From Nitrosomonas europaea (GTDB lineage Bacteria > Pseudomonadota > Gammaproteobacteria > Burkholderiales > Nitrosomonadaceae), in NCBI RefSeq assembly GCF_900167395.1, contig NZ_FUWK01000001.1, positions 1-32,000 of the forward strand: DNA of 32,000 nucleotides, read 5' to 3'. The notes under the pieces were generated by a model. That model did not search any database. It was not told the DNA's origin and saw nothing but the letters and a program-made list of their open reading frames with translations. Positions 7,715-21,912 of this stretch are shown here, piece after piece. The position numbers and the translations under genes were made by a program. Position 1 is the first letter of the stretch. Each line of letters begins with the position of its first letter.

Positions 7715-7749
7715 TTGATGGTTCCCACGCTTCGCGTGGGAACCATCAA
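7715..7749. other. Perfect 16-bp-stem hairpin directly after the receptor pseudogene; left edge of the cas island
   Basis: TTGATGGTTCCCACGC (7715-7730), loop TTC, then GCGTGGGAACCATCAA (7734-7749). There is no U-tract on either strand. Confidence 0.5.
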
Positions 7750-8048: not shown

Positions 8049-8062
8049 CGGCAAGCTTGCCG
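8049..8062. repeat. Palindrome CGGCAAGCTTGCCG (copy 1), 65 bp upstream of cas10
   Basis: Perfect 14-bp palindrome read directly from the sequence. It shares the GGCAAGCTTGCC core with the copies at 10681 and 17311. Confidence 0.8.
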
Positions 8063-8126
8063 TTGTATCTGTTACCAGATGACTGATACACAATCAGCAT
8101 CATTAAATCTTCCGGAATAATTTTAT

Positions 8127-10679
8127 ATGTCGCTGCTTCAATCATCCTGCCGCGTTGCATTCGCAGCGCTGCTACACGATCTGGGAAAATTTCACGAACG
8201 AACTGGCCAGCCGGTTAACGGTGATCTCGCTGCGCTGACCACGCTCTACAGATATTCACATGCTGCCCACACCGGCGGCATGTGGGATGTCGTGGAAAAA
8301 TACGCGCCTGATCTTCTGCGAGGAGATGTTGCTCCTTTTTCCGGCCGTACCAGCGGTGCCGATATTACCGATAGCATGGCCAATGCCGCAGCAGCGCACC
8401 ATAAACCGGGAACACTGTTGCAGTGGATCATTGCCACGGCTGACCGGGCTGCTTCCGGTTTCGAACGCACAAAGTTTGATGAATACAACGCTGATGCAGA
8501 AGGAGAAACACCACAGCATAAAAACCGCTTTCAGGCGCGGATGATCAGTTTGTTCGAGCAGATCAAAATCAACGCACAAGCTCCTGTCGGCCAGTTCAAG
8601 CATGCCTACCCCTTGCGGGCACTTGGGCCAGAAGCTATTTTTCCTGACAAACGCGCTGTCATTGAGCCGAATGAAAATAAAACAGCACAAGCCGAGTATG
8701 CCGCGCTGTGGGAACAATTTTTGCAAGCACTGGAATCTATCCCAAAGTCACACCGCAGCAACTGGCCGTTATGGCTGGATCATTTCGATTCCGCCTGGCT
8801 AACCTTTACCCAGGCGATTCCTTCAGCGACCAATCGGGGCGTGGTGCCGGATGTTTCCCTCTATGACCATAGCAAGGCAGTGGCTGCGCTGGCTGCTGCC
8901 CTGTGGCGCTGGCACGAGGAAACCGGTAACACCGGTGCCGATGCCCTGGCAAAACTGAGCGATTCGGAACGCCCTGACTGGGATGAACAAAAATTGCTGC
9001 TGATCCAGGGTGATTTTTTCGGTATTCAGAACTTCATTTTTGCGCAGGGCGCACAAACACAAAAACACGCCCACAAGCTGTTGCGCGGTCGCTCTTTTCA
9101 AGTGGCACTGCTGGCGGAAATGGCGGCACTCAAGCTGCTGGAAACCCTGCAATTACCGTCAACCAGTCAGATTATCAATGCTGCCGGTAAATTTCTTATC
9201 GTCGCACCTAATACGCCTTCAGCGCGCGAGGCAGTAGAAACCTGTCGGCGCAGTTTCGATCAATGGTGTTTGCAGCACACCTATGGCGAGATCAGTGTGG
9301 GGATTGCTTCTACCTCCGCCAGTTGCAACGATCTGCGAAGTGATAGATTTAGAACGCTTACACAAAAGCTGTTCGGGGCGCTGGATGTTGCCAAGCACCG
9401 GCGTTTTGATCTGTGTGGCAACACCGCTGCGGTGCGTGATGTTTCTTTTGCCGACGGACCTTGTGACTATCACGGGCGGTATCCGGCCGATTGTGCAGCA
9501 GAGGGGGACAAATCGGCCTCCTGTGCGCTGTCACGTGACCAGATCGTCATCGGCGAAGCGCTCACCAAACATGCACGACTGCTGGTATTAAACACAGCTG
9601 ACAGCTTCAAAAAGCCACTCGATCTGGATTACTTCGGTTATCGCCTGATATTTGTCAATGAAGCGGATGCTTCCGGCCATTACGGCAAACTGGCCGAACA
9701 GGGGGAACTGGTACGCGCCTGGGATTTTGATCTGCCTGATAAGAATGGTACCTGCTTTCACGGTTATGCCCGACGTTTTGTTAACAGTTATGTGCCGATT
9801 TGGGACGAAAATGAGAAGAAAGATGATCCAGCTTATAAGCGTCTCAGTCAGGAAGATCTAGGCGATACTTCGCCAGGAAAACTCAAAACTCTTCACTCTA
9901 TTGCTGCCGGCAGTAATAACGAAATCGCGCTGGTCACGCTCAAGGGCGATATCGACAACCTCGGGGCGCTATTTCAGAGCGGCCTTGCAGAACCGACTTT
10001 TGCGCGCTGGGCTTCACTCTCGCGTCAGGTCAACGCCTTTTTTGCGCTGTGGCTGCCGTGGTACTGCGCCCATGGCGAGAACAGACGCTTTCGCAACACT
10101 TACACGGTATTTGCCGGTGGTGACGATTTTTTTCTGATCGGCCCTTGGGAATCCACACTTGAACTGGCGGGTGCCATGCGCAAGGCATTCGCACGTTATG
10201 TGGTGCGTGATGACATCACCTTTTCGCTGGGTGCTGTTATGACCCAACCAAAAATACCAGCACGCCAGCTTGCCGTTGCGGCTGAATCCGGTCTGAATGC
10301 CGCCAAACAGCACTATGGAAAGAATGCCGTCAGCTTGTGGGGTGTTACCGTTGGCTGGGCAGAATGGCGAACACTCATGAAGGAGCGTCGTGATGCACTG
10401 GAACGGTTGATCAGTGAAGCGGGGGGGTTATCCACCGGTTTTATTTACAACCTGCTGCTGTTATCCGACCAGGCGGAACGTGATGATCCCAAAAGAGATG
10501 ATCGTCGCCCGGAAGATGCTTTGTGGCGTTCACGCCTGGCGTATCGCTGTGCCCGGCTGCCAAAAAATCAGCAAATGGTTGGTAAAGCACTCGCCCGCGA
10601 ATGTGGCGAAGCCTTGAAACAATACCGTGGTGCTTACCGTCTCCCGGTTTCGGTGCTGCTGTACCGTCAGCGACAATGA
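8127..10679 (+). CDS. cas10: Cas10/Csm1, type III large subunit with HD nuclease and GGDD cyclase motifs
   Basis: HD dyad in FAALLHDLGKF (CAC GAT at 8175-8180). First palm LLLIQGDFFGIQNFIF. Cys-rich segment GPCDYHGRYPADCAAEGDKSASC. Cyclase motif VFAGGDDFFLIGPW (GGDD at 10116-10127). Confidence 0.95.
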   Translation: MSLLQSSCRVAFAALLHDLGKFHERTGQPVNGDLAALTTLYRYSHAAHTGGMWDVVEKYAPDLLRGDVAPFSGRTSGADITDSMANAAAAHHKPGTLLQWIIATADRAASGFERTKFDEYNADAEGETPQHKNRFQARMISLFEQIKINAQAPVGQFKHAYPLRALGPEAIFPDKRAVIEPNENKTAQAEYAALWEQFLQALESIPKSHRSNWPLWLDHFDSAWLTFTQAIPSATNRGVVPDVSLYDHSKAVAALAAALWRWHEETGNTGADALAKLSDSERPDWDEQKLLLIQGDFFGIQNFIFAQGAQTQKHAHKLLRGRSFQVALLAEMAALKLLETLQLPSTSQIINAAGKFLIVAPNTPSAREAVETCRRSFDQWCLQHTYGEISVGIASTSASCNDLRSDRFRTLTQKLFGALDVAKHRRFDLCGNTAAVRDVSFADGPCDYHGRYPADCAAEGDKSASCALSRDQIVIGEALTKHARLLVLNTADSFKKPLDLDYFGYRLIFVNEADASGHYGKLAEQGELVRAWDFDLPDKNGTCFHGYARRFVNSYVPIWDENEKKDDPAYKRLSQEDLGDTSPGKLKTLHSIAAGSNNEIALVTLKGDIDNLGALFQSGLAEPTFARWASLSRQVNAFFALWLPWYCAHGENRRFRNTYTVFAGGDDFFLIGPWESTLELAGAMRKAFARYVVRDDITFSLGAVMTQPKIPARQLAVAAESGLNAAKQHYGKNAVSLWGVTVGWAEWRTLMKERRDALERLISEAGGLSTGFIYNLLLLSDQAERDDPKRDDRRPEDALWRSRLAYRCARLPKNQQMVGKALARECGEALKQYRGAYRLPVSVLLYRQRQ

Positions 10680-10695
10680 CGGCAAGCTTGCCGTC
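10678..10695. repeat. Palindrome GACGGCAAGCTTGCCGTC (copy 2), overlapping the cas10 stop codon
   Basis: Perfect 18-bp palindrome. As RNA it could form a 7-bp stem with an AGCU loop. Confidence 0.8.
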
Positions 10696-10761
10696 CGGCA
10701 ATCAAACCGGGCAGCCATTTATTATCAACACCTACTATCGACAACATCCGGAGATCACAAA

Positions 10762-11148
10762 ATGACACCTGACCTGAAAACCAGCCCGCCCCCAGCCACG
10801 CTTTTTTCCGAAGATGCGGAAGCTATCGCAAAGTACCTTGATGAAAGCGCTAAAAACGGGCGCGATTCAGGCAAAAATAAATCGACTCAAATCCGGCGTT
10901 TCTACGATGAACTGGTTGGTTGGCAGGAGCGCATTGGTACAGATGAGCAAAAATTCAGGGATTACGCAGCCTTTATCCACATGCTCAATGCCAAGGCTGC
11001 CTATGCGCAAGGCCGCAATCTTGTAACCAGAGAATTCGTTCAATGGTTACGCGACTGCATCAAGCAGATTGACGGGCCACGCACTTTGAATCATTTCCGG
11101 CTGCACTTTGAAGCCATGATCGGGTTTCTCAAGGCAATTCGCGGCTAG
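10762..11148 (+). CDS. csm2: Csm2-like small subunit (128 aa)
   Basis: I prefer the ATG at 10762 (GGAGATCACAAA ATG). It is a small helical protein with KSTQIRRFYDEL, which resembles the Csm2 TQxRKFY motif, and it sits between cas10 and csm3. Confidence 0.7.
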   Translation: MTPDLKTSPPPATLFSEDAEAIAKYLDESAKNGRDSGKNKSTQIRRFYDELVGWQERIGTDEQKFRDYAAFIHMLNAKAAYAQGRNLVTREFVQWLRDCIKQIDGPRTLNHFRLHFEAMIGFLKAIRG

Positions 11149-11211
11149 ATAACGCTGCCAACCATGACATTTCCGTTTTTTCGATTATTTGCAGCCTGAA
11201 AGGAACTCACC

Positions 11212-11928
11212 ATGCAACTTGATACCATCCATAAAATCACCGGCACCCTCATCCTCAAATCCGGACTGCATATCGGCGCGGGCGACAGCGAAATGCGTAT
11301 CGGCGGTACCGACAGCCCTGTGGTCAAGGATCCGCTCACCGATCAGCCTTATATCCCCGGTTCATCGCTGAAAGGCAAAATTCGCAGTCTGCTGGAATGG
11401 CGGCATGGGCTGGTAGTAGCAACGGGAGGCGCACCCTATTCGTTCAAACATCTCGCCCAGGATGAAAATAATTCAGCCGGGCGCGATGTCATCAAACTGT
11501 TTGGTGGTGCGCCGGACAAGGCAGAAGATCAGCTCGTCAAAAATATTGGTCCCACTCGCCTTGCTTTCTGGGATTGTCCGTTGAATGGTGACTGGAAAAA
11601 GGAAGCAGCCGATTCCCGTCACCTGCTGACGACCGAAGTCAAATCGGAGAACTCCATCAACCGTATCGCGGGTACAGCTGAGCACCCTCGCTTTATCGAG
11701 CGAGTAATCGCTGGAGCGCGCTTTGATTTCACCCTCACGCTCAAAGTATTGGAAGGAGATGATCTGCTCAACACCGTGCTGCTTGGTCTGCGACTGCTGG
11801 AGCTGGATAGCCTCGGCGGTTCCGGTTCGCGCGGTTACGGCAAGATCAAATTTGCGGAGCTGAAGCTCGACGGCACGGACTTAATGGAACAGTTCCACGC
11901 TATCACCCCATTCAACCAAACGGCCTGA
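11212..11928 (+). CDS. csm3: Csm3 (Cas7-family RAMP, crRNA backbone / target RNase subunit)
   Basis: ITGTLILKSGLHIGAGDSEMRIGGTDSPVVKDPLTDQPYIPGSSLKGKIRSLLE and a C-terminal glycine loop LGGSGSRGYGKI. AAGGAA RBS lies upstream. Confidence 0.9.
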   Translation: MQLDTIHKITGTLILKSGLHIGAGDSEMRIGGTDSPVVKDPLTDQPYIPGSSLKGKIRSLLEWRHGLVVATGGAPYSFKHLAQDENNSAGRDVIKLFGGAPDKAEDQLVKNIGPTRLAFWDCPLNGDWKKEAADSRHLLTTEVKSENSINRIAGTAEHPRFIERVIAGARFDFTLTLKVLEGDDLLNTVLLGLRLLELDSLGGSGSRGYGKIKFAELKLDGTDLMEQFHAITPFNQTA

Positions 11929-11932
11929 AATA

Positions 11933-12883
11933 ATGACTCCACTGCGTGCAATTCTTCGGCTGCGTTCGCCACTGGGTACCCCGCTGGCGGGTGATACCTT
12001 GTTTGGTCAGCTTTGCCATGCTGTCCGCGAAATGCTGGGGGAAGAAAAACTCGAAGCACTGCTCGATGGTTACACCGCCGGCAGCCCCTGGCTGGTGGTT
12101 TCCGATGGGTTCCCGAGTGGTTACCTGCCGCGTCCCACCGTTGCAGCAGCATTACAGGCAAACAGCGAGGAAGATCCGAAAAAACGCAAGGAAGCCAAGG
12201 GCAAACGCTGGATTCCACACAGCCAGATTGCACAACCACTGCGCCAGTTACTCAGTAGCGCCGTTTCTGATGAAGAGGTTTACGGTAAACAGAGCAGGCC
12301 GATCCAGGCTGCCGCGTTTCATAACACACTCAACCGGCTGACCGGCACGACAGGTACAGGTGAATTTGCACCTTACACCCAGTCACAAATTTTCTACCAG
12401 CGCGATCAGCGCATGGATTTGTGGTGTGTACTCGATGAAGATCGCCTACCGCGTGAAACATTGCACCAGTTGCTTGAATATATTGGCAGTGTTGGCTATG
12501 GCCGTGATGCCAGCATCGGCCTGGGAAAATTTGCTGTGGAGCAGATAGAGGAAGCGGCATTATTCAAACAAACACACCCGAATGCCAATGCTTACTGGAC
12601 GCTGGCACCTTGCTCACCGCAAGGACAAGGTTTTAAAACCTCACGCAGTTACTGGCAGGTACTGACCCGTTTTGGCCGGCATGGCGGCACGCTGGCACTG
12701 GGCGCCAATCCATTCAAGCAACCGCTGCTGCTGGCGGCAACAGGCGCCATTTTTGCACCGACAAACAACATGGCGCAAATCCATTTCATTGGCAGCGGTC
12801 TGGCAAAGGTATCGCTGATGCAAACGGCAGCAGTCCACCAGGGTTATGCACCGGTACTGGGAATTTGTATGGAGGCTATCTGA
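11933..12883 (+). CDS. csm4: Csm4 (Cas5-family RAMP)
   Basis: RLRSPLGTPLAGDTLFGQLCHA at the N-terminus and a glycine loop SVGYGRDASIGLGKF. Its position follows csm3. Confidence 0.8.
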   Translation: MTPLRAILRLRSPLGTPLAGDTLFGQLCHAVREMLGEEKLEALLDGYTAGSPWLVVSDGFPSGYLPRPTVAAALQANSEEDPKKRKEAKGKRWIPHSQIAQPLRQLLSSAVSDEEVYGKQSRPIQAAAFHNTLNRLTGTTGTGEFAPYTQSQIFYQRDQRMDLWCVLDEDRLPRETLHQLLEYIGSVGYGRDASIGLGKFAVEQIEEAALFKQTHPNANAYWTLAPCSPQGQGFKTSRSYWQVLTRFGRHGGTLALGANPFKQPLLLAATGAIFAPTNNMAQIHFIGSGLAKVSLMQTAAVHQGYAPVLGICMEAI

Positions 12884-14625
12884 TGAAGTTTCTGGATACG
12901 CAAGAACTGGTTGTGAGTACTTTGTCACCAGTGCACATTGGTTGCGGCGAAGACTATGAGCCTACCGAATATGTGGTTGATACATCTGGCGTACTACATC
13001 GATTCAATGCAGGCATACTGCCTGATTTAAGTGATGCGGGTATTTCCAGCGATATTCTCACCATATTATCTAATGACGAAGCGCACACGGAACAATTGCG
13101 TGCAGTACATAAAGTGCTCAGTAAGTATCGCGACAAAATCATTCCACTAGCCAGCGTCCACGTTTCGATGTGTACTGGTGTGCATGCGCACTATAAAAGT
13201 ACGCAGGATAAAAAAAATGATTTCAACCGGAATGGTGTCGAGCGAACTTCGTATCAACCGTTCAATCAGTTGCCTTATCTTCCGGGTAGCAGCATCAAGG
13301 GTGCTATCCGGACAGCTATTCTCAACGAGCACATCGCAGGTAATAACCCGTGTTCGACGGTGCTCATGAGGCAGATTCAAGATTTCAACACCATGATCGA
13401 GGAGTACGACCCTGGTAATGGCAAATTGCTGTTACGGCTGAAGCTCCAACACACGAAGTGGGATTACGATCGGGCACGTAAAAACATTGAGAAAGCCATT
13501 GCAGATGTTTCATCTGCTCTTGGTACTGATTTGCTCGGCGGTAAATTTGAAACCGATCCGCTGCGCGCCCTCAAAGTGAGTGACGCTGCCCCACTTGATA
13601 TTGAAATTGAGCGCGAGATTCGCTTTTGTCTTAATCGCAGCCGATCCGGCCGTCGCAGTCAGGCGCAGGTAAAGAATCTCTATACTCGCCTGGAATACAT
13701 TCTTGAACACCAACCCGCCGCCTTCAGTTTATCTCTGACATTGCAAAATCTTCATGAGATCGCGGGGAGGCGCAACCATCGCAATGAACTCATAAGCCCT
13801 TCAGCCGATAAATTGTTGTTATGGACAGGTATCGTCAAGGCATGTAACAGCTACTATCTAAATCGGTTGGACGATGACCTCGCTATGCTTGGGAAGCTCT
13901 ATCCGACATCAGAATGGAGAAAACAGACTCAAAGCATCCTTGATGCTGGTTTGCGTGACCAAATTAAAACCGGCAATTGCCTTTTGCTGCGAATCGGCAA
14001 ACATGGTGGCGCAAACAGCAATACTGTTAGTGGCCGCCAAATCAAGATCATGCTCAATGAGGATAAGCGCGAGGCCAATGGCAAAGAAGAAAAGATACGT
14101 CTTTATACGTTCGATGACGAATCCCGAACCATCTGGTATTGCGGTGACGATCTGGACAAGCCATCTGATCTTTTGCCACACGGCTGGATCGTCCTGAGTA
14201 ACCCGGATCAGATTTGGCATGCTGATCTACCCGGTTTTGAGCGACGTTGCGCCAGACAACAGGCGATTGCCGAGAGTGCCCGCCGCCAGGCTGAAGCTGC
14301 CGCCGCCGAACAGGCCAAAGCTGCAGCACAGGCTGCCCGCGAAGCTGCGTTGGCAGCCATGACGGAGAATCAGCGTCGTATCGAAGCATTTGTATCCATG
14401 TGCGCCCGGCGCGCAGAACAGCTCCGGGGTGGCAAGGAGAATCCCAATGCTGCCATTCACACAGCTGCACGAGAATTGGTAAAAGCTGCGCTGGAAGGTG
14501 CGGACTGGACAATCGACGAGAAATGCGCTGTTGCTGATGCGATCGAAGAATGGTTGCCCAAACTGGTCAAGGTGGAGCTCAAAGATGAACGTAAAAAGCT
14601 GAAACTATCAGCCTTGCGCACCTGA
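12883..14625 (+). CDS. csm5: Csm5-like RAMP with internal insertions and a C-terminal extension of about 135 aa (Ala-rich helix plus small domain)
   Basis: The ATG at 12883 is preceded by GGAGG and overlaps the csm4 stop (TGATG). Motifs: LSPVHIGCGEDYEP, LPYLPGSSIKGAIRTAIL, DPLRALKVSDA, LLLRIGKHGGANS, PHGWIVL. Then comes ARQQAIAESARRQAEAAAAEQAKAAAQAAREAALAAM (14251-14361) and a further 88 aa. Confidence 0.75.
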   Translation: MKFLDTQELVVSTLSPVHIGCGEDYEPTEYVVDTSGVLHRFNAGILPDLSDAGISSDILTILSNDEAHTEQLRAVHKVLSKYRDKIIPLASVHVSMCTGVHAHYKSTQDKKNDFNRNGVERTSYQPFNQLPYLPGSSIKGAIRTAILNEHIAGNNPCSTVLMRQIQDFNTMIEEYDPGNGKLLLRLKLQHTKWDYDRARKNIEKAIADVSSALGTDLLGGKFETDPLRALKVSDAAPLDIEIEREIRFCLNRSRSGRRSQAQVKNLYTRLEYILEHQPAAFSLSLTLQNLHEIAGRRNHRNELISPSADKLLLWTGIVKACNSYYLNRLDDDLAMLGKLYPTSEWRKQTQSILDAGLRDQIKTGNCLLLRIGKHGGANSNTVSGRQIKIMLNEDKREANGKEEKIRLYTFDDESRTIWYCGDDLDKPSDLLPHGWIVLSNPDQIWHADLPGFERRCARQQAIAESARRQAEAAAAEQAKAAAQAAREAALAAMTENQRRIEAFVSMCARRAEQLRGGKENPNAAIHTAARELVKAALEGADWTIDEKCAVADAIEEWLPKLVKVELKDERKKLKLSALRT

Positions 14626-14652
14626 AAATCTGTCATTAAATGTAAAAACAGT

Positions 14653-14916
14653 ATGAATTCAGCAATTTTGTCACAAGATGGTCGCGTGGTAATCCCCAAA
14701 AAATTCCGTAACAAACTGGAGATTAAAGAGGGGGATGAGGTTATCTGGAAGGAAGAGGACGAACAAATCATTCTCACCTCACGTCGGCAGGAACTTGAGC
14801 GTGCCGAACGTTTTTTTGGGCAAATGATGGCTGATTATGCCGGTGATTCTCTGGCAGATGAGTTGATCGCGGAGCGGCGAGCTGGAGCAATTTATGAGCA
14901 CACATCACATGGCTGA
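14653..14916 (+). CDS. AbrB/SpoVT (MazE-like) swapped-hairpin DNA-binding protein, 87 aa; no toxin partner
   Basis: ILSQDGRVVIPKKFRNKLEIKEGDEVIWKEEDEQIIL is the typical SpoVT-AbrB domain pattern. The 3' end overlaps the cas6 start by 23 nt. Confidence 0.8.
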   Translation: MNSAILSQDGRVVIPKKFRNKLEIKEGDEVIWKEEDEQIILTSRRQELERAERFFGQMMADYAGDSLADELIAERRAGAIYEHTSHG

Positions 14917-15846
14917 ATTTTCTTCTCCCACCCTGTCTCTGGGGCGTTATCGCCTTGACTGGCAGGTGACACGTTCAATCCGGTTGCCGGATTATGCCGG
15001 TTCCATGTTGCGCGGCGCGTTTGGACATGCCTTGCGCAGCATCGGCTGCATTACCCGGGAGAAGGATTGTACAACTTGTCCGCTGCGGCGCGACTGTCCC
15101 TACACCATACTGTTTGAACCGGTTCCACCTGAACATCATCCGTTGCAGGATTTCAGTAGGATTCCGGTACCTTACATCATTGAACCGCCAGAATGGGGAA
15201 CGCGTGTACTGCATCCCGGCGATACGCTGTCATTCCACTTCACACTGATCGGCTGTGCACTGCAGGAACTGCCCATTGCCATTCTGGCCTGGCGGCGTGC
15301 GCTGGCGCGCGGCATTGGCCCCGATGACGGCACAGCCGAACTGACCAGTATCGTGCTGGAACAGCCGGATAGTTCCATCCCGGTTTATACGCCGGAAAAC
15401 GGTCAGATCGAACCGCACGAAACCCGGCTTGCCTGCCCGCCACCGCCTGCTGCCACTATACGGCTGCATATCACCACCCCACTGCGCCTGCAGAACAATG
15501 GCGTGCCGCTCAAGGCACAGACTGTCACTGAGCGCGCCCTGCTCATGGCGCTGGTACGGCGGTTTGCGCTGATCAGCGAATTCCATGGCGAAGCTGCCTG
15601 GCAGCCGGATTTTCGCCACTTAGGTGAACTGACCAGTAGCGTAACCGGCAAGCGGCAACTCAGCTGGCGCGACTGGCAACGTTATTCCAGTCGGCAAAAA
15701 CAGAAAATGGCGCTAGGTGGACTGACCGGCCGCTGGGATTTGCACGGTGAGCTTGCTGCTTTCTGGCCGGCGCTGTGGTTTGGACAATGGCTCCATGCCG
15801 GCAAGAATGCCAGCTTTGGCCTGGGCCGCTACCGGATTATTGCCGC

Positions 15847-15850
<4 letters not shown>
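14894..15850 (+). CDS. cas6: Cas6-family crRNA endoribonuclease (long form, 318 aa) with a Cys4 cluster
   Basis: GGAG lies 6 nt upstream of the ATG. N-terminal RAMP pattern LPDYAGSMLRGAFGHALR. C52-x6-C59-x2-C62-x5-C68 (15047-15097). C-terminal glycine-rich loop GKNASFGLGRYRI. Confidence 0.75.
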
Positions 15851-17306
<1,456 letters not shown>

Positions 17307-17310
17307 TAAC

Positions 17311-17322
17311 GGCAAGCTTGCC
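17311..17322. repeat. Palindrome GGCAAGCTTGCC (copy 3), 5 nt after the csx1 stop
   Basis: Perfect 12-bp palindrome. It is followed by a TTGCCAT/ATGGCAA 7-bp inverted repeat (17318-17339). Confidence 0.8.
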
Positions 17323-17462
17323 ATATACCATCATGGCAATGCGAAACGATAAACTTTGCATCTGTCAGATTTTCTCGTGTCGTGCCATGAATCCATTCAA
17401 CGGATGACTGAGTTATCTGCCTACATTGGAAATAATTTATTTTTCAAACCAAGGAAAACAAA

Positions 17463-17621
17463 ATGTCAATATTAGACTCGATTCTTGGGGCTCTGGAAGA
17501 TGTGTTGAAAGAAGCCAAGGATATTCCAACAGAGAACCTTGCCATCATCGCAGTGACCACGATTGGCATCGCTGCAATCTTCAAAAATTCCGATTCAGAG
17601 AAGATTTCCTCTGATTGGTAA
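17463..17621 (+). CDS. Candidate 52-aa small protein with one hydrophobic helix (below the ORF-track cutoff)
   Basis: AAGGAAAA lies upstream of the ATG. The translation is MSILDSILGALEDVLKEAKDIPTENLAIIAVTTIGIAAIFKNSDSEKISSDW. I recognise no family, and it sits in the only long gap of the cas operon. Confidence 0.3.
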   Translation: MSILDSILGALEDVLKEAKDIPTENLAIIAVTTIGIAAIFKNSDSEKISSDW

Positions 17622-17803
17622 TTTTCCAGTCTCTCATTTTCGCCATCATTGCGAAGCCGCCCGTGGCAATTCGGTATCTTTGTATTGTCTGACTGGATTG
17701 CTTCGGTGTATCTACCTCGCAATAATTGTTCAAGCATTAGAAGACAGTGTCTTTACTGCTATAAATTTGCTTACTGAATACCTGCCAGGAAAATTGTTCC
17801 ACT

Positions 17804-18928
17804 ATGCCAGAGCCGCTCCAACCCCATGAATATCCGCACCGCATACTGTTATGTGTTACGGGGCTGTCACCGCAGATTGTCACTGAAACGCTGTACGCTC
17901 TGGCTGTGGCACGGGCCACGCCCTTTATTCCGACAGAGATACATCTGCTGACCACTACCGATGGAGCACGGTTGGCGCGGGCAGCATTGCTGCACCCCGA
18001 TGGTGGACATTTTCATGCGCTGTTGAATGACCAGCCACAGATCGGCCTCCCCCGTTTTGATGAAGATTGCATCCATATCATCAGCCATCACCAGGAAAAA
18101 CTCGCCGACATTCGCACACCGGCCGAAAATGCCGCAGCGGCTGACACAATCACGGCACTTGTTGCCCAACTTACTGAGGATGCTGACGCGGCGCTGCATG
18201 TTTCGATTGCCGGCGGGCGCAAGACCATGGGTTTTTATCTGGGGTATGCCTTTTCACTGTTTGCCCGGCCGCAGGATAATCTCTCCCATGTTCTGGTTTC
18301 ATCACCCTTTGAAGGTCATCCGGATTTTTTTTACCCGCCACGTCAGCCACGCCGCCTGGTAACACGAGACGGGCATCATATTGATACTGCCGAGGCCATT
18401 GTTACACTGGCAGAAATTCCTGTGGTACGGTTGCGGCACGGGCTGCCGGCTACTCTGATTGCCGGCCGCGCCGGGTTCAGTGAAACGGTAGTTACCTTGC
18501 AGCAAAGTTTTGCACCACCATGCCTGCTGATTGATCTGGAGCAGCGAAACGTCGTCTGTGGCACTACTGCAGTTGCCATGAAACCGCAACTGCTTGCATG
18601 GCTGGCGTGGTGGGCTACGCTAGCCCGACAGGGGCGGCCTGAAACAACCTGGCGTGAAGCCGATGCCAGATTATTTCTCGATATTTACCGGACAGTGGTT
18701 GGTATTGATGCCATTGATTATGAGAAAACCGCCGAGCTGCTCGGCAACGGCATGGAGAAGGAGTTTTTTCAGACCAAAAACGCGAAACTGGAACGTGTGC
18801 TGAAAGACACACTTGGACCGGCAGCTGCCCCCTATCTGCTAACGACTACGGGCAAACGCCCGCATACACGGCGTGGTCTCACACTGCCTCCCGAGCGTAT
18901 TCGTATCGTTGGCACAGGCAGTAAATGA
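17804..18928 (+). CDS. NE0113-family CARF-domain CRISPR-associated protein, 374 aa
   Basis: HRILLCVTGLSPQIVTETLYALAV is the Rossmann-like CARF start typical of the NE0113 family as I recall it. Also ALHVSIAGGRKTMGFYLGYA. The C-terminal third is helical and basic (...FFQTKNAKLERVLKD...GKRPHTRRGL). I see no nuclease motif. Confidence 0.75.
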   Translation: MPEPLQPHEYPHRILLCVTGLSPQIVTETLYALAVARATPFIPTEIHLLTTTDGARLARAALLHPDGGHFHALLNDQPQIGLPRFDEDCIHIISHHQEKLADIRTPAENAAAADTITALVAQLTEDADAALHVSIAGGRKTMGFYLGYAFSLFARPQDNLSHVLVSSPFEGHPDFFYPPRQPRRLVTRDGHHIDTAEAIVTLAEIPVVRLRHGLPATLIAGRAGFSETVVTLQQSFAPPCLLIDLEQRNVVCGTTAVAMKPQLLAWLAWWATLARQGRPETTWREADARLFLDIYRTVVGIDAIDYEKTAELLGNGMEKEFFQTKNAKLERVLKDTLGPAAAPYLLTTTGKRPHTRRGLTLPPERIRIVGTGSK

Positions 18929-19025
18929 AACTATCGGCGTCGAGTGAGAAAATCTGTTTCCGGTGCTTGGCACGGCAAACTTACCATCCCGCAACAAATA
19001 CAAGGCAAAGGCTACGATACTTCAC

Positions 19026-19304
19026 ATGAATCGGAACTTGTACCTGGTCGCCTACGATATCTGCAATCCGCGCCGTCTGCGCCAGGTTTGTCGCTATCTC
19101 ACCGGCTATAAAGTCAGCGGGCAAAAATCCGTATTTGAAATATGGGTAACCCCGACAGAGTTGCACACCATTCGCACTGAGCTCGACAAGCTGATGGACA
19201 CACAGGCAGATCGCCTCCACATCCTCAGCCTTGATCCGCGTATGAAGCCACGCTGTTACGGCAATGCCAGCACATTCACAGTGCAACACTTTTGTATTGT
19301 CTGA
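19026..19304 (+). CDS. cas2: Cas2 (copy 1), 92 aa
   Basis: I prefer the internal ATG at 19026. LYLVAYDICNPRRLRQVCRYLTGYKVSGQKSVFEIWVT shows the beta1 Asp and the ferredoxin-like Cas2 pattern. Confidence 0.85.
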   Translation: MNRNLYLVAYDICNPRRLRQVCRYLTGYKVSGQKSVFEIWVTPTELHTIRTELDKLMDTQADRLHILSLDPRMKPRCYGNASTFTVQHFCIV

Positions 19305-19325
19305 AAGTGAGGAGGAAAAAACATC

Positions 19326-20309
19326 ATGACCAGCCTGTTCGTTGATCGCCGCGGTGTAGAACTTGGGCTTGAATCTGGTGCTATCGTTTTCCGGGAAAAT
19401 GGTGAACGCATTGGTACAGTGCCCATTGCCCCGTTGACACGCGTATTTCTACGTGGCGATGTCAATCTACCAGCGGCACTACTCGGCAAGCTTGGTGAAC
19501 GCGGTGTTGGCGTAGTCATTCTCAGCGGTCGCACCAGCCGACCAAGTCTGCTTCTGGCCAGACCGCACAACGATGCAGCCCGGCGTGTCGCCCAAGTACG
19601 CTTGAGCCTCGATGAACCAGCCAGTCTAATAATTGCCAGAGAACTCATCGAACGCAAGCTGACGCGACAAATCGAATGGTTTACCGAGCTGCGTGAAAAC
19701 GATATCCAGGCACGTTACGAACTCAGCCGCGCCTTGCGCGGATTAGAAGAGCATCGGGCCCGTCTCGGTAACATCAATAACGCAGCCAGTCTGCGTGGTA
19801 TCGAGGGCTCCGCTGCTGCACGCTACTTCACCGGCCTGCAGGCTGTCATCCCGGGCTCACTGCATTTTCATGGCCGCAACCGTCGTCCGCCGCGTGACCC
19901 GTTCAATGCCCTGCTTTCGCTTACTTACACCCTGCTGCACAGTGAAATTACGATTGCATTGCATGGTGCTGGATTCGATCCCTACATTGGTTTTTATCAC
20001 CGCCTGGATTTTGGTCGCGAATCGCTCGCCTCCGACCTACTGGAGCCACTGCGACCACTGGCGGATCGTTTTGCCTTTGCACTGGTACATCGGCGAGTGC
20101 TCGACAAGGATCATTTCACCACAACTGAATCAGGGTGCCTGCTTGGCAAGGCTGGTCGCGTGCGTTACTACGCAGCGTATGAGGAACATAGTGAGATCTT
20201 GCGCAAAGGAATCAATCAGGAAATTGAACAACTGGCCGAACAAGTTGGCAGCGCTCTGACTCCCGAATCAGGAAATACACCGGATCACGATTCCGGAGAT
20301 TGGGAATAA
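19326..20309 (+). CDS. cas1: Cas1 integrase
   Basis: GAGGAGG RBS lies upstream. Motifs: LRGIEGSAAARYF, DPFNALLSLTYTLL, GFDPYIGFYHR, SLASDLLEPLRP (conserved E/H/D positions). Confidence 0.95.
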   Translation: MTSLFVDRRGVELGLESGAIVFRENGERIGTVPIAPLTRVFLRGDVNLPAALLGKLGERGVGVVILSGRTSRPSLLLARPHNDAARRVAQVRLSLDEPASLIIARELIERKLTRQIEWFTELRENDIQARYELSRALRGLEEHRARLGNINNAASLRGIEGSAAARYFTGLQAVIPGSLHFHGRNRRPPRDPFNALLSLTYTLLHSEITIALHGAGFDPYIGFYHRLDFGRESLASDLLEPLRPLADRFAFALVHRRVLDKDHFTTTESGCLLGKAGRVRYYAAYEEHSEILRKGINQEIEQLAEQVGSALTPESGNTPDHDSGDWE

Positions 20310-20375
20310 ATATGAGAATAAGTGCACCACTACCCGGGTCCCATGCCAGCGGATCATTTTTTGAAAAGACAGGCA

Positions 20376-20660
20376 ATGAGTGACTTTATCATCTGCTACG
20401 ACATCACTGACCCACGCAGATTAGGACGCTTGTATCGTTATCTGATCAAACGGGCAGTACCATTGCAGTATTCGGTATTCCTGTTCAGGGGTGACGATCG
20501 TCAGCTTGAACGCTGTATACAGGATGCCATCGAGCTGATTGACGAAAAACAGGACGATTTGCGGGTTTATCCACTACCGGGCCGCGGCCTGAAAGCGCGT
20601 ATCGGCCGCCCTACACTGCCGGAAGGCATACAATGGAGTGGCCTGCCGGCCAAATGGTAA
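20376..20660 (+). CDS. cas2: Cas2 (copy 2), 94 aa; divergent paralogue of copy 1
   Basis: I prefer the ATG at 20376. FIICYDITDPRRLGRLYRYLIKRAVPLQYSVFLFRGD. By eye it is roughly one-third identical to copy 1. Confidence 0.85.
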   Translation: MSDFIICYDITDPRRLGRLYRYLIKRAVPLQYSVFLFRGDDRQLERCIQDAIELIDEKQDDLRVYPLPGRGLKARIGRPTLPEGIQWSGLPAKW

Positions 20661-20778
20661 AATATAATGTATCTGGAAGAAACAGTCGTTTAAAAAGAGG
20701 TAACTTGCAACATCCCATCAGTTTTCCTTATCGCCCTTTGCAATTTATTGATCTGGCGGAAGAAAAACACGGTGGTCA
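20661..20778 (+). promoter_or_regulatory. CRISPR leader (118 nt, AT-rich)
   Basis: It lies between the cas2 stop and repeat 1. Orientation is supported by the degenerate repeat at the far end and by the ATTGAGAC 3' end of the repeat. Only weak promoter hexamers are present (TTGCAA 20705-20710). Confidence 0.6.
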
Positions 20779-21310
20779 GAAACACCGATGCCCTGATTTC
20801 AAAGGGATTGAGACTCCGTTTGCCTGAACATTGCCGACATTAATATTCTGAAACACCGATGCCCTGATTTCAAAGGGATTGAGACCACTGCCCGAGCAGT
20901 ATTCTCCGAATCTACGCCGAGAAACACCGATGCCCTGATTTCAAAGGGATTGAGACATAGGTCTCGTTGGGAAAGATTTCGGCATGGAATCGAAACACCG
21001 ATGCCCTGATTTCAAAGGGATTGAGACTTAGGATCACCATAACTGATCGCGTTAGCCAAGGGAAACACCGATGCCCTGATTTCAAAGGGATTGAGACGTA
21101 GTAATTTTTGTCTTCTTTCTTGATTCTGGTTTGAAACACCGATGCCCTGATTTCAAAGGGATTGAGACAAAGTAATTTTTGTCTTCTTTCTTGACTAAGA
21201 GATGAAACACCGATGCCCTGATTTCAAAGGGATTGAGACAACGCCCACCTATCTTTTTCAACAGCAGGATACCGAAACACCGATACCCTGAATTACCGCC
21301 GGATTAGTGC
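20779..21310 (+). CRISPR. CRISPR array: 7 identical 36-nt repeats plus 1 degenerate terminal repeat, with 7 spacers of 34-35 nt
   Basis: The repeat GAAACACCGATGCCCTGATTTCAAAGGGATTGAGAC starts at 20779, 20850, 20921, 20992, 21062, 21133 and 21204. The degenerate copy at 21274-21310 is GAAACACCGATACCCTGAATTACCGCCGGATTAGTGC. Confidence 0.97.
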
Positions 21311-21468
21311 GTAAATGCGTTTTGTCTGCTGTTTTCCCCGGCCATATATATCCAAGAATAATTCAACGTTGGCAACGTAAACCCGCAACAGCTCCAGATA
21401 CACCCGCTTTACTTGTTATACTGCTCAGCCTGAAAATAACTGATCAAAATTACATTGATGGAGGAGAA

Positions 21469-21912
21469 ATGGATATTTTGAGTTTGGTGGCAGGATTTCT
21501 GGCGGGTGCGCTTACGATTTATCTCGCCAGTTATTTCATGAAGCCGAGTGAAAACAAGACACAAAAAACGGTCGATGCAGGCACTATCAATTTGTTCGAT
21601 CAGTTGTGGCAGACACATGAGCGCTTGCTCAACGAAATGAAGCAGGATGTAGAAAATCCCGATTTCAAATTTCACCGGGAATTTTATGTGCTGAAAAAAG
21701 GCTGGGGGTGGGAGCGCTGGGGATTTCATCGCAGAGGTCCCTGTATCGCCTATTTCCTGGAGGATCACAGTGATCTGCTGCCGTTGCTGGATTCGCTGAC
21801 TTCTTACGGATTGATCAGCCAGACCGGCGAAACCGGGAAGAATACCGCCAGATTTCAACTGAGCGAAAAACTGGTTGAGCTGCTGCGTGGAAAAAATACA
21901 AATAAATCCTGA
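21469..21912 (+). CDS. Hypothetical membrane-anchored protein, 147 aa
   Basis: GGAGGAG lies directly upstream of the ATG at 21469. N-terminal TM helix MDILSLVAGFLAGALTIYLASYF. Trp-rich KKGWGWERWGF. The C-terminal part (LLDSLTSYGLISQTGETGKNTARFQLSEKLVELL) looks wHTH-like. I recognise no family. Confidence 0.5.
   Translation: MDILSLVAGFLAGALTIYLASYFMKPSENKTQKTVDAGTINLFDQLWQTHERLLNEMKQDVENPDFKFHREFYVLKKGWGWERWGFHRRGPCIAYFLEDHSDLLPLLDSLTSYGLISQTGETGKNTARFQLSEKLVELLRGKNTNKS

Follow-up and report, generated by a model that had tools for sequence, protein, structure and literature searches.

A candidate cA4-responsive transcription factor within the type III-A CRISPR-Cas locus of Nitrosomonas europaea

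Nitrosomonas europaea carries a type III-A (Csm) CRISPR-Cas locus in which a single messenger, predicted to be cA4, may meet three fates, i.e., activation of Csx1, destruction by Csx16 and use by NE0113 for tuning transcription. That NE0113 is such a cA4-responsive transcription factor is considered rather likely on the basis of sequence, structure models and analogy. The island itself, which is complete and annotated in RefSeq for strain ATCC 19718, was already known; the conserved palindrome in front of its operons and the C-terminal domain of NE0113 are new.

Locus identity and gene content

The window, i.e., the whole stretch of 32,000 nt that was analyzed, contains the 13 co-directional open reading frames of the island, all on the + strand, with a 497-bp gap after csx1 (Table 1). 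They comprise the genes for Cas10, Csm2-5 and Cas6, the accessory genes csx16, csx1 and NE0113, an AbrB-family gene and the adaptation genes cas2-cas1-cas2, followed by an array of eight repeats. Eight of the island proteins are identical to ATCC 19718 entries within CAD84022-CAD84034 (protein match), and the proteins of the window correspond to RefSeq entries bearing the same names as in a preliminary description of this DNA. All 13 gene assignments made there were borne out by profile searches (NCBIfam, Pfam, PADLOC), with scores far beyond chance and each above the curated cut-off; the two less certain assignments, Csx1 and NE0113, are also backed by predicted structures. Likewise, the HD, GGDD, DVTHG and R-x4-H motifs lie in frame where they had been placed, and the overlaps TGATG (12881-12885), ATGA (15847-15850) and ATGA (16140-16143) as well as the array at the island end are present.

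The closest solved complex is the type III-A complex of Serratia, as seen for Cas10 (9zs2_A, E 9.5e-141) and for the unusually long Csm5, which carries an Ala/Gln-rich C-terminal extension and has its full-length relative in the 559-aa Serratia protein (9zs2_J, E 1.1e-23). Asp34 of Csm3 occupies the place of the catalytic D34 in the Serratia protein, the D34A variant of which was described as RNase-dead in the Serratia paper. The AbrB-family gene overlaps the start of cas6 by 23 nt and is absent from three sister Nitrosomonas loci.

The array repeats GAAACACCGATGCCCTGATTTCAAAGGGATTGAGAC, spaced 70-71 nt and recognized as CRISPR-DR35 (Rfam), end with a degenerate copy at 21274-21309. The array is assigned to the + strand, because the CCCT...AGGG stem is directly followed by ATTGAGAC as the end of the repeat, the degenerate repeat is leader-distal and the phage match of spacer 4 is antisense to the mRNA; the predicted 5' tag of the crRNA is AUUGAGAC. 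Judged by its sequence, spacer 4 is directed against a phage related to the known Nitrosomonas phage PhiNF-1. Third codon positions account for all three mismatches, and the crRNA is predicted to be complementary to the mRNA of the phage.

Table 1. Features of the island, with positions in the window; family scores are bits against the curated cut-off, from NCBIfam profiles except for Cas6 (Pfam).
Feature	Position	Strand	Details
P1 palindrome CGGCAAGCTTGCCG	8049-8062	+	77 bp upstream of cas10 ATG
P1 -10-like CACAAT	8089-8094	+	predicted transcription start about 8101
cas10/csm1	8127-10679	+	850 aa; TIGR02578 697 vs 170; Pfam palm2, Csm1_B; identical to CAD84034.1
cas10 HD dyad H17-D18	8175-8180	+	in-frame motif
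cas10 cyclase GGDD	10116-10127	+	residues 664-667; in-frame motif
P2 palindrome CGGCAAGCTTGCCG	10680-10693	+	adjoins cas10 stop codon; 81 bp upstream of csm2 ATG
P2 -10 TATTAT	10720-10725	+	predicted start about 10732
csm2	10762-11148	+	128 aa, as called in public assemblies; TIGR01870 84 vs 30.6; mechanical ORF starts further upstream, at 10627
csm3	11212-11928	+	238 aa; TIGR02582 251 vs 90
csm4	11933-12883	+	316 aa; TIGR01903 124 vs 55; stop overlaps csm5 start (TGATG)
csm5	12883-14625	+	580 aa; TIGR01899 66 vs 38, N-terminal half only
AbrB/MazE/SpoVT-family gene	14653-14916	+	87 aa; TIGR01439 38.7 vs 28.3; Pfam MazE_antitoxin
cas6	14894-15850	+	318 aa; PF10040 57 vs 25; PF27225 + PF10040 on public gene call
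csx16	15847-16143	+	98 aa; TIGR02620 149 vs 46; PADLOC Csx16 E 3.7e-51
csx1	16140-17306	+	388 aa, CARF-HEPN; TIGR02221 (Csx1/Csx2 type) 296 vs 76; PADLOC CARF2--CARF_HEPN E 7e-162
csx1 DVTHG	16557-16571	+	in-frame motif
csx1 HEPN R-N-x3-H (RNALAH)	17190-17207	+	in-frame motif
Gap after csx1	17307-17803	+	497 bp; homology restricted to N. eutropha (85% nt identity)
P3 palindrome CGGCAAGCTTGCCA	17310-17323	+	four bases past csx1 stop
P3 -10 TAAACT	17350-17355	+	predicted start about 17362
Doubtful 52-aa ORF in gap	17463-17621	+	66% protein identity; 1-bp indel near 3' end
NE0113	17804-18928	+	374 aa; TIGR02584 (cas_NE0113) 305 vs 81; PF09623
NE0113 CARF domain, CARF5 clade	17837-18508	+	aa 12-235; PADLOC CARF5--CARF E 2e-120
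NE0113 winged-helix-like C-terminal domain	18509-18925	+	aa 236-374; from model and profile comparison
P4 degenerate palindrome CGGCAAACTTACCA	18973-18986	+	2 mismatches; 52 bp upstream of cas2 ATG
P4 -10 TACGAT	19013-19018	+	downstream of degenerate palindrome
cas2 paralogue a	19026-19304	+	92 aa; TIGR01573 30.5 vs 24.5; Pfam Cas2 E 2e-13; mechanical ORF starts at 18963
cas1	19326-20309	+	327 aa; TIGR00287 203 vs 72
cas2 paralogue b	20343-20660	+	105 aa; TIGR01573 32.7 vs 24.5; Pfam Cas2 E 1e-13; mechanical ORF starts at 20322
CRISPR leader	20661-20778	+	between cas2b and first repeat; degenerate repeat at far end of array
CRISPR array	20779-21309	+	7 identical 36-nt repeats, 1 degenerate terminal; 7 spacers
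Spacer 4	21028-21061	+	31/34 match to scaffolding-protein gene of PhiNF-1

Palindromes and putative promoters

In front of cas10, csm2 and the NE0113 leader there is a 12-base palindrome, YGGCAAGCTTGCCR, which precedes a -10 box by 27 nt; a degenerate copy lies ahead of cas2. The window contains three exact copies against 0.16 expected, all of them at gene junctions inside the island. The center of the palindrome lies near -45 of the predicted promoters, which feature no conserved -35 sequence. Judged by these elements, cas10, csm2 and the NE0113 leader probably each have a promoter of their own, and cas2 has a degenerate one. The gene overlaps had previously been taken to indicate one translationally coupled operon; they do support coupling within csm4-csm5 and cas6-csx16-csx1, whereas a single operon is improbable given the separate palindrome/-10 promoters. 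The gap between csx1 and NE0113 probably serves the NE0113 transcript as a long 5' leader; it gave no Rfam match and a fold z-score of -1.7.

Among 80 related loci, chosen through NE0113 with one locus per species, the palindrome occurs in 81 exact copies compared to 0.33 expected. No other 12-mer palindrome in these loci comes close, the runner-up reaching 10 copies, and the sequence extends to a 14-mer of the form Y...R. Of the 81 sites, 42 have TAnnnT at +39 (57 if a shift of 1 is allowed), as against one occurrence on the opposite side of the palindrome and a background frequency of 0.4%. Upstream of cas10 the module is found at 78-84 bp and upstream of csm2 at 66-81 bp, and exact copies precede the first cas2 by 52-60 bp. 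In 38 related loci an exact palindrome precedes the start of NE0113 by ≤260 bp, mostly by 42-92 bp, compared to 493 bp from the ATG in N. europaea. In an unbiased metagenome sample of the motif plus -10 box, 15 of 80 matches belonged to such cas loci, directly upstream of the same genes.

Exact copies are distributed over Beta- and Gammaproteobacteria and Bryobacteraceae, and near-exact ones occur in a Nitrospirota locus; thus, the factor reading the palindrome probably travels with the locus. As the comparison loci were selected through NE0113, the link of the palindrome to this protein, and not to some other conserved gene there, is one by elimination, and the palindrome is invariant across sites, giving no covariation with the protein. 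Another factor might read it, with the AbrB-like protein, a factor of the host or a special sigma factor as candidates, or it might act at the RNA level, all of which is together regarded as quite improbable. In favor of another reader, the N. europaea island does encode an AbrB-family DNA-binding protein, and NE0113 is found on the same, often short, contig in only 7 of the 15 cas-linked metagenome matches. Nevertheless, only 6 of the 80 loci have a detectable AbrB gene, which is missing from those loci of N. eutropha and N. mobilis that retain the motif, while a host factor is hard to reconcile with hosts spanning several phyla. The GG and GC lie 3 nt too close together for a sigma-54 promoter, and a sigma-70-type -10 box is found at fixed distance instead; a 12-nt palindrome yields a 4-bp hairpin at best, which argues against an RNA element.

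The NE0113 protein

Moderate evidence from profile and model comparisons points to NE0113 as a CARF5-clade sensor joined to a conserved OmpR/PhoB-type winged-helix-like C-terminal domain. In the AF2 model (pLDDT 88), the N-terminal half shows a CARF fold with Foldseek matches to the CARF domains of Cad1, Cam1, Csm6 and Sso2081, the best being the cA4-bound domains of Cad1, Cam1 and Csm6. In the modeled C-terminal domain, a three-stranded beta sheet is followed by helices, then by a long helix and finally by a basic beta hairpin. OmpR/PhoB-family DNA-binding domains account for 14 of the 17 PDB matches of its profile (best E 0.015), and a comparison with eight E. coli OmpR-family domains gave an hhalign probability of 78.7% (P 1.7e-5; control comparisons P 0.15 and 0.078). 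The OmpR-like assignment is built on sub-threshold matches (E 0.015, hhalign 79%). Pfam found no HTH in this domain, and one PADLOC profile spanning the whole protein is labeled 'CARF+WYL C'. The domain is conserved across homologues of 46-90% identity, among which it features no conserved polar catalytic residues.

NE0113 had been described as an effector-less CARF protein. It is indeed nuclease-less, as no nuclease or other enzymatic domain was detected, but the conserved 140-aa C-terminal domain speaks against a protein without output. The earlier, implicit view of a mere sponge or decoy which buffers the messenger, a role suggested in the literature for Csx15, is accordingly very improbable: a sponge needs no such domain, which is kept full-length in hundreds of clusters and, within phmmer reach, is always fused to the NE0113-type CARF, and the promoter palindromes would be left unexplained.

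A transcription regulator was predicted in NE0113 as early as 2014 (PMC4012209). No experimental work on the N. europaea locus or on any NE0113-family protein was found in the literature. Alternatively, the protein could be a second ring nuclease (long Crn1) beside Csx16, having no transcriptional role and using its C-terminal domain for dimerization or stability. This is suggested by the NCBIfam and UniRef names, which read ring nuclease or Sso2081-like (NCBI family name 'ring nuclease Csm6'; Pfam family PF09623 named after the ring nuclease Sso2081), by the Foldseek match to Sso2081 (probability 0.99), by the conserved Ser/Thr at position 22 and GGRK motif, and by the related CARF5 protein Cad1, the CARF domain of which binds and cleaves cA4 (PMC12669630). 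Still, it appears unlikely, since stand-alone ring nucleases comprise about 180 aa, with a survey limit of 250 aa, and two ring nucleases occur in only about 4% of positive loci (PMC12409355), compared to NE0113 together with Csx16 in 32 of the 80 loci. Moreover, the conserved OmpR-like domain and the locus-specific promoter palindrome would remain unexplained. Roles of NE0113 as ring nuclease and in transcription are not mutually exclusive.

Messenger and proposed circuit

In the families concerned, the crRNA-guided Csm complex binds phage transcripts, which are cut by Csm3, and Cas10 then makes cyclic oligoadenylate. For the N. europaea locus, cA4 is predicted as the Cas10 product and messenger, because Csx1-type CARF-HEPN proteins, Csx16 and CARF5-clade CARF domains are cA4-specific where tested. 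The Serratia Cas10-Csm complex, the closest characterized one, makes mainly cA3, and therefore cA4 is predicted here solely on the strength of the accessory genes. Among cA4 effectors, CARF-HEPN Csx1 is the most common; in the protein encoded here, the HEPN residues R351, N352 and H356 are invariant among 31 homologues, and the AF2 model (pLDDT 88) resembles cA4-bound Marinitoga Csx1-Crn2 (TM 0.70, E 3.5e-14). By sequence, the csx16 product is a member of the cA4-specific ring nuclease family, which was biochemically confirmed to degrade cA4 only (PMC12409355). Between csx16 and NE0113, the related loci encode differing effectors, mostly Card1/Can2 (30 loci), with Csx1, as here, in 7 and an APE2256-type protein in 3, NE0113 being constant. 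The preliminary remark that no work was known on the sharing of cyclic oligoadenylate was overstated in view of the known Csx16 activity, the survey of ring nuclease and effector co-occurrence (PMC12409355) and the regulator prediction for NE0113.

Following the behavior of the respective families, cA4 would switch on the Csx1 RNase, and Csx16 would degrade cA4 and thereby reset the cell. A symmetric NE0113 dimer would bind the palindrome YGGCAAGCTTGCCR and would tune the transcription of interference and adaptation genes in response to cA4, most likely by activation, a direction suggested only by the position of the sites. This tuning would probably be self-limited, if the CARF domain of NE0113 also cleaves cA4 as those of Cad1 and Crn1 do. 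The predicted circuit would be the bacterial counterpart of the archaeal one around Csa3.

The type III-A island and its effector complex

The preliminary description had read 8127-21310 as a complete type III-A locus carrying three accessory genes of cyclic oligoadenylate (cOA) families, and this annotation is right. All genes were found in the order in which it placed them and on the + strand, the motifs it had located (HD, GGDD, DVTHG, RNALAH and three stop/start overlaps) lie at exactly those positions and in frame, and the array does comprise eight repeats, seven of them identical 36-nt units and one a degenerate terminal repeat. The profile searches it had proposed as a check (run here with NCBIfam and Pfam) assign every protein to the family named there, above the curated cut-off. 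PADLOC concurs with these assignments and further places Csx1 in the CARF clade CARF2-HEPN and NE0113 in CARF5. The island is already known and annotated, and its parts come from named, mostly characterised families. Eight of its proteins are exact look-up matches to N. europaea ATCC 19718 entries (CAD84022-CAD84034), and the existing public names are Cas10/Csm1, Csm3, Csm5, Csx16, TIGR02221-family protein, "ring nuclease Csm6"/Sso2081-like and Cas1. The flanks are formed by dapE and by a split TonB-dependent receptor, probably a frameshifted pseudogene, which is followed by a terminator. At the dapE side, a 201-aa ORF starts within the degenerate terminal repeat and extends to dapE; it has no Pfam, NCBIfam or PADLOC match, and public gene calls feature a 147-196-aa gene in this region.

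Features of the island and of related loci (window coordinates, unless a locus label, L plus number, is given)
Feature	Position	Strand	Remark
TonB-dependent siderophore receptor	5795-7709		two overlapping ORFs (379 aa, 262 aa)
Terminator	7715-7749		perfect 16-bp stem
Exact GGCAAGCTTGCC, module P1	77 bp upstream of cas10 ATG		-10 CACAAT (8089)
cas10	8127-10679	+
Exact GGCAAGCTTGCC, module P2	directly after cas10 stop, 81 bp upstream of csm2 ATG		-10 TATTAT (10720)
csm2	10762-11148	+
csm3, csm4	between csm2 and csm5	+
csm5	12883-14625	+	580 aa
AbrB/MazE-family gene	14653-14916	+	23-nt overlap with cas6 start
cas6	after AbrB-family gene, before csx16	+	PF10040
csx16	15847-16143	+	98 aa
csx1	16140-17306	+
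Exact GGCAAGCTTGCC, module P3	four bases past csx1 stop		-10 TAAACT (17350)
Gap	17307-17803		497 bp, csx1 to NE0113
NE0113	17804-18928	+	374 aa
Two-mismatch copy GGCAAACTTACC, module P4	52 bp before cas2		-10 TACGAT
First cas2	19026-19304	+
cas1	between the cas2 genes	+
Second cas2	20343-20660	+	then CRISPR array
Spacer 4	21028-21061
Spacers 5 and 6	21098-21132, 21169-21203
201-aa ORF	21307-21912
Split cas10 in metagenome assemblies	L003 223-2876, L006 301-2876
csm5 in a related locus	L012 5489-7089
Effector swap-site examples	L008 8862-9989, L013 8109-9176, L017 8166-8723
Palindrome in coding context GDxGKLAAWV	L047 16463, L067 16385, L069 9093, L079 7478, L062 18251

The locus is of type III-A (Csm), as Cas10/Csm1 (TIGR02578, 697 bits against a cut-off of 170), Csm2 (TIGR01870, 84 against 31), Csm3 (TIGR02582, 251 against 90), Csm4 (TIGR01903, 124 against 55) and Csm5 (TIGR01899, 66 against 38) each exceed the curated equivalog cut-off. 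An adjoining array, a Cas6 of PF10040 and a repeat predicted to yield an 8-nt 5' tag are likewise those of a type III-A array. The cyclase motif GGDD of Cas10 is intact (residues 664-667; palm2 domain, E 5e-28), and cA4 is the cOA species predicted from the accessory genes. H17-D18 is present and aligned with Serratia H17, with HD/HDIG profiles below their cut-off (17 bits against 22-28) and further His/Asp residues visible at H45/H48, H91-H92 and D106. The closest solved complex is the type III-A Cas10-Csm of Serratia sp. ATCC 39006 (PDB 9zs2/9zs4; bioRxiv 10.64898/2026.03.30.715313), with a related Cas10 (E 9.5e-141) and a similarly long Csm5 (559 aa in Serratia, E 1.1e-23). The residues mutated in that study, Cas10 H17 (HD), GGDD and Csm3 D34, are all found in N. 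europaea at matching positions. Nevertheless, the Serratia complex produces cA3 in excess of cA4 and has the DNase NucC as effector, with Csx1, Csx16 and NE0113 not listed in the construct (bioRxiv 10.64898/2026.03.30.715313), whereas the N. europaea locus features accessory genes of cA4-type families instead.

Some parts of the island vary between relatives. Csm5 carries an Ala/Gln-rich C-terminal extension, and its isolated C-terminal domain gave nothing significant in Pfam. The protein is just 37% identical to that of N. eutropha, compared with 80-85% for the neighbouring csm4 and cas6, and 94% identical in Nitrosomonas sp. SJ624 (L007); this divergence looks like module replacement or very fast evolution. 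In two metagenome assemblies of the locus, cas10 is present as two ORFs; the split could stem from the assembly or reflect a gene naturally inactivated in certain populations. The AbrB/MazE-family gene is missing from the loci of N. eutropha, N. mobilis and Nitrosomonas sp. SJ624 and therefore seems to have been inserted recently; a partner toxin is not visible. AbrB-like genes beside cas6 also occur in a few Rhodocyclaceae loci (L010, L011, L013, L017).

Transcription of the array from the + strand is indicated by the polarity of spacer 4, by the end of the repeat, ATTGAGAC, directly after the CCCT/AGGG stem, and by the leader-distal degenerate repeat. Rfam orients the repeat on the minus strand, which was rejected in view of the 8-nt tag, the placement of the degenerate repeat and the phage mRNA polarity. 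Spacer 4 agrees at 31 of 34 positions with the scaffolding-protein gene of phage PhiNF-1 (OL634959.1, 2937-2970); the three mismatches all fall on third codon positions, and the + strand crRNA would be antisense to the phage mRNA. This match is evidence that the system is or was in use, and the N. europaea assemblies differ in array content. PhiNF-1 belongs to the only cultured group of Nitrosomonas phages and is propagated on N. europaea ATCC 25978; the publications consulted on PhiNF-1 and Nir1 do not mention the spacer match. With these cultured phages and a spacer matching their group, the system is open to study in its natural host, which is of relevance to proposals for nitrification control with PhiNF-1 or Nir1. 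Spacers 5 and 6 have 24 nt in common (AGTAATTTTTGTCTTCTTTCTTGA) before their sequences part, as though two related protospacers had been sampled from one start position, and spacer 5 is found twice in another assembly of the locus (L002). The two Cas2 paralogues flanking cas1 are about 32-35% identical. As most related loci retain the cas2-cas1-cas2 order, the adaptation module may contain a heteromeric Cas2.

A conserved palindrome at the predicted promoters

The 12-bp palindrome GGCAAGCTTGCC occurs in three exact copies in the 32-kb window, where 0.16 would be expected and none of 100 shuffles reached three, and all three lie at gene junctions of the island. For comparison, 80 related loci, one per species, were selected through NE0113. 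They contain 81 exact copies against 0.33 expected, making GGCAAGCTTGCC the commonest 12-mer palindrome in these loci by a factor of eight. Alignment of the sites extends the palindrome to YGGCAAGCTTGCCR and reveals a TAnAAT-like -10 box exactly 27 nt downstream, with no -35 consensus in between. TAnnnT stands at the -10 position in 42 of the 81 sites and once on the opposite side, compared with a background frequency of 0.4%. Distances to the start codons are mostly 42-92 bp for NE0113 (38 loci), about 78-84 bp for cas10, 66-81 bp for csm2 and 52-60 bp for the first cas2. In the window, transcription is predicted to start near 8101, 10732, 17362 and 19025 for modules P1 to P4, respectively. 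Exact copies were found in Beta- and Gammaproteobacteria and in Bryobacteraceae, and near-exact ones in one Nitrospirota locus; within the loci the site is near-invariant, with rare symmetric variants only, e.g., GACAAGCTTGTC. In a metagenome sample of 80 matches to palindrome plus -10 box, 15 belong to cas loci of this kind and immediately precede NE0113, cas2, cas10 or csm2, and the remaining 65, which show no cas genes, correspond to the chance expectation for 15 specified bases and the size of the database. The locus features a conserved cis-element at its predicted promoters, a candidate operator. A sigma-54 promoter was rejected because of the spacing and an RNA hairpin because of the stem length. 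A generic sigma-70 scan had missed these promoters due to the missing -35 box, and a literature search with the motif string returned unrelated primer sequences only. The palindrome was also observed inside two coding contexts: the conserved ...GDxGKLAAWV..., which in Rhodoferax-type loci lies some 5.3 kb downstream of NE0113, and ...LGKLAAxGLW in L010, L020, L029, L070 and L078.

The 497-bp gap between csx1 and NE0113, with the P3 module at its 5' end, is present only in N. europaea and N. eutropha (85% nucleotide identity) and probably serves as a long leader; conservation is highest over its first 150 bp. A 52-aa ORF within the gap was rejected as a real gene: protein identity to N. eutropha is 66% against 85% at the nucleotide level, a 1-bp indel breaks the frame near the end, homologues beyond these two species were not found, and Pfam gave nothing significant. 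A structured RNA found no support either, as Rfam returned no match even at E <=1 and the fold z-score is just -1.7. A search of the gap, the leader and the region upstream of cas10 for short direct or inverted repeats yielded only the palindrome and the upstream gene's terminator.

The NE0113 protein and its relatives

NE0113 is assigned to TIGR02584 (cas_NE0113) with 305 bits against 81 and to PF09623 with E 7e-43. From the family name and the order of the accession numbers we infer that this protein, CAD84024.1 of N. europaea ATCC 19718, is the founding member of the family and the source of its locus tag. The family comprises more than 5,700 clusters at 90% identity, and no experimental characterisation of it was found in the searchable literature. 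In the AF2 model the N-terminal 235 residues form the CARF domain, and its best fold matches in Foldseek are cA4-bound Cad1, Cam1, T. thermophilus Csm6 and the ring nuclease Sso2081. Residues 236-374 were modelled with confidence as a second domain, in which three short strands are followed by helices, a long helix and a basic hairpin. Homologues as distant as 46% identity retain this C-terminal domain in full and, within the reach of phmmer, it occurs solely behind NE0113-type CARF domains; conservation concerns hydrophobic or basic rather than catalytic residues. The isolated domain gave nothing significant in Pfam, and neither the single sequence nor the full-length profile of NE0113 returned anything useful from the PDB. 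The profile of the C-terminal domain alone was informative: 14 of 17 PDB matches are DNA-binding domains of the OmpR/PhoB family, including KdpE, RstA, PmrA, CpxR and PhoB (best E 0.015). Comparison by hhalign with eight E. coli OmpR-family domains yielded 78.7% probability and P 1.7e-5, versus P 0.15 and 0.078 for two controls, and the order of secondary structure elements in the AF2 model is compatible with an OmpR/PhoB-type winged helix. The C-terminal domain is accordingly regarded as a probable rather than proven OmpR/PhoB-like winged helix, an assignment agreeing with the prediction of NE0113 proteins as transcription regulators in 2014 (PMC4012209).

Three known CARF proteins offer themselves for comparison. 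The best structural match of the CARF domain is Cad1, a CARF5-adenosine deaminase (9mmw, 9ofc, 9c6a; 21-24% identity) which is grouped with NE0113 in the PADLOC clade CARF5. The CARF domain of Cad1 binds and cleaves cA4 (PMC12669630). However, the output of Cad1 is a hexameric deaminase, whereas NE0113 features a small winged-helix-like domain instead. The ring nuclease (cOA-degrading enzyme) Crn1/Sso2081 is a CARF fold match (Foldseek probability 0.99) of the same Pfam family, PF09623, and a Ser/Thr after strand 1 is conserved; sequence similarity between the two is below HMMER detection with the NE0113 profile. Homologues of NE0113 preserve S22, in some cases as Thr, and K140 within the GGRK motif, candidate equivalents of the catalytic Ser/Thr and Lys of Sso2081. 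Nevertheless, Crn1 is a stand-alone CARF protein of about 180 aa, and NE0113, with its 374 aa and conserved extra domain, exceeds the size limit for stand-alone ring nucleases in a published survey (<=250 aa; PMC12409355), so that it was not classified as such. The third protein, Csa3, is an archaeal CARF-wHTH transcription factor binding cA4 (PMC8844856, PMC8699464). The proposed likeness lies in a CARF sensor joined to a winged helix on cas promoters, which would tie type III signalling to the expression of cas and adaptation genes. Still, Csa3 represents another CARF clade than NE0113 (CARF5/PF09623), and its wHTH is MarR-like, in contrast to the OmpR/PhoB-like domain with N-terminal beta sheet predicted for NE0113. 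Moreover, Csa3 is archaeal, while NE0113 is encoded within bacterial type III-A loci with GGCAAGCTTGCC as candidate operator. As NE0113 has no Csa3_N match in Pfam and Csa3 is not among the best 50 fold matches of the NE0113 model, membership in the Csa3 family was rejected and the likeness is functional only.

A proposed division of labour around cA4

Csx1 exceeds the cut-off of TIGR02221 (296 bits against 76) and has the DxTHG motif; the narrower equivalog TIGR01897 (MJ1666 Csx1) was not reached (18 bits against 110). Its AF2 model (pLDDT 88) superposes on cA4-bound Marinitoga Csx1-Crn2 (8y7g; TM 0.70, E 3.5e-14), with SisCsx1 (Sulfolobus) and PfuCsx1 (Pyrococcus) as other Foldseek matches. 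The HEPN motif residues R351, N352 and H356 are invariant in 31 homologues, and Pfam gave nothing significant for the isolated C-terminal domain. As modelled, the protein is a Csx1, with CARF at the N-terminus, HEPN with its R-x4-6-H motif at the C-terminus and an overall fold resembling other Csx1 proteins. Csx16, a small protein of the expected size (about 100 aa), belongs by its profile score (TIGR02620, 149 bits against 46) to a ring nuclease family of which a member degrades cA4, not cA3 or cA6 (PMC12409355). A cA4-specific phosphodiesterase activity is predicted for the N. europaea protein from its family. Pairing of a CARF-HEPN cA4 effector and an extrinsic ring nuclease specific for cA4 is common and has been documented (Hoikkala et al. 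2025, PMC12409355), and both N. europaea proteins are clear members of the families surveyed there. Among the related loci, 32 of 80 contain Csx16, whose partner effector in this clade is Card1/Can2 in 26 of these 32, with Csx1, as in N. europaea, in a minority of three. The interval between csx16 and NE0113 holds Card1/Can2 in 30 of the 80 loci (N. mobilis and a further Nitrosomonas among them), Csx1 in seven, including N. europaea and N. eutropha, and an APE2256-type protein in three (e.g., L013); a SAVED-domain protein occurs as an added ORF in one (L017). The effector is thus exchangeable, whereas the ring nuclease and NE0113 persist, which suits a regulatory role of NE0113 better than that of an alternative effector.

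As GGCAAGCTTGCC is distributed across phyla, the most economical assumption is that it is read by a factor encoded in the locus itself. Among the constant proteins, a DNA-binding-like domain is carried by NE0113 alone, with AbrB detectable in just six of the 80 loci. Direct binding of NE0113 to GGCAAGCTTGCC and an effect of cA4 on this binding are therefore proposed. By means of its CARF5 sensor and OmpR-like winged helix, NE0113 would bind the palindrome centred near -45 at promoters without a conserved -35 box, and this position and the absent -35 box suggest activation as the direction of regulation. Detection of phage RNA would then lead to expression of the interference complex, the regulator itself and the cas2-cas1-cas2 adaptation module, and the GGCAAGCTTGCC regulon would travel with a large clade of bacterial type III-A loci. 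That the NE0113 family consists of cA4-gated, probably self-limiting transcription factors on GGCAAGCTTGCC, forming a portable type III-A regulon which couples phage RNA detection to cas expression, is a proposal for which we consider the chances evenly balanced. Most likely, Csx1 is the output, Csx16 the off-switch and NE0113 the gene-expression arm, possibly self-limiting. The first two roles are assigned by analogy to characterised families, and the third is derived from fold, remote homology and the conserved operator. Neither the operator nor a NE0113 circuit was found described in the searchable literature, which excludes Makarova et al. 2020 (CARF classification).

The island as such has little significance; its value is that of a test bed for the NE0113 family, and the residual interest concerns the proposed pairing of NE0113 and operator. 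GGCAAGCTTGCC and cA4 allow a concrete and cheap test of the function of this family. If true, the pairing would explain why one locus combines an effector and a ring nuclease with an "effector-less" CARF protein, namely as output, off-switch and gene-expression arm. Moreover, it would show a bacterial type III second messenger feeding back on cas and adaptation genes, like archaeal Csa3.
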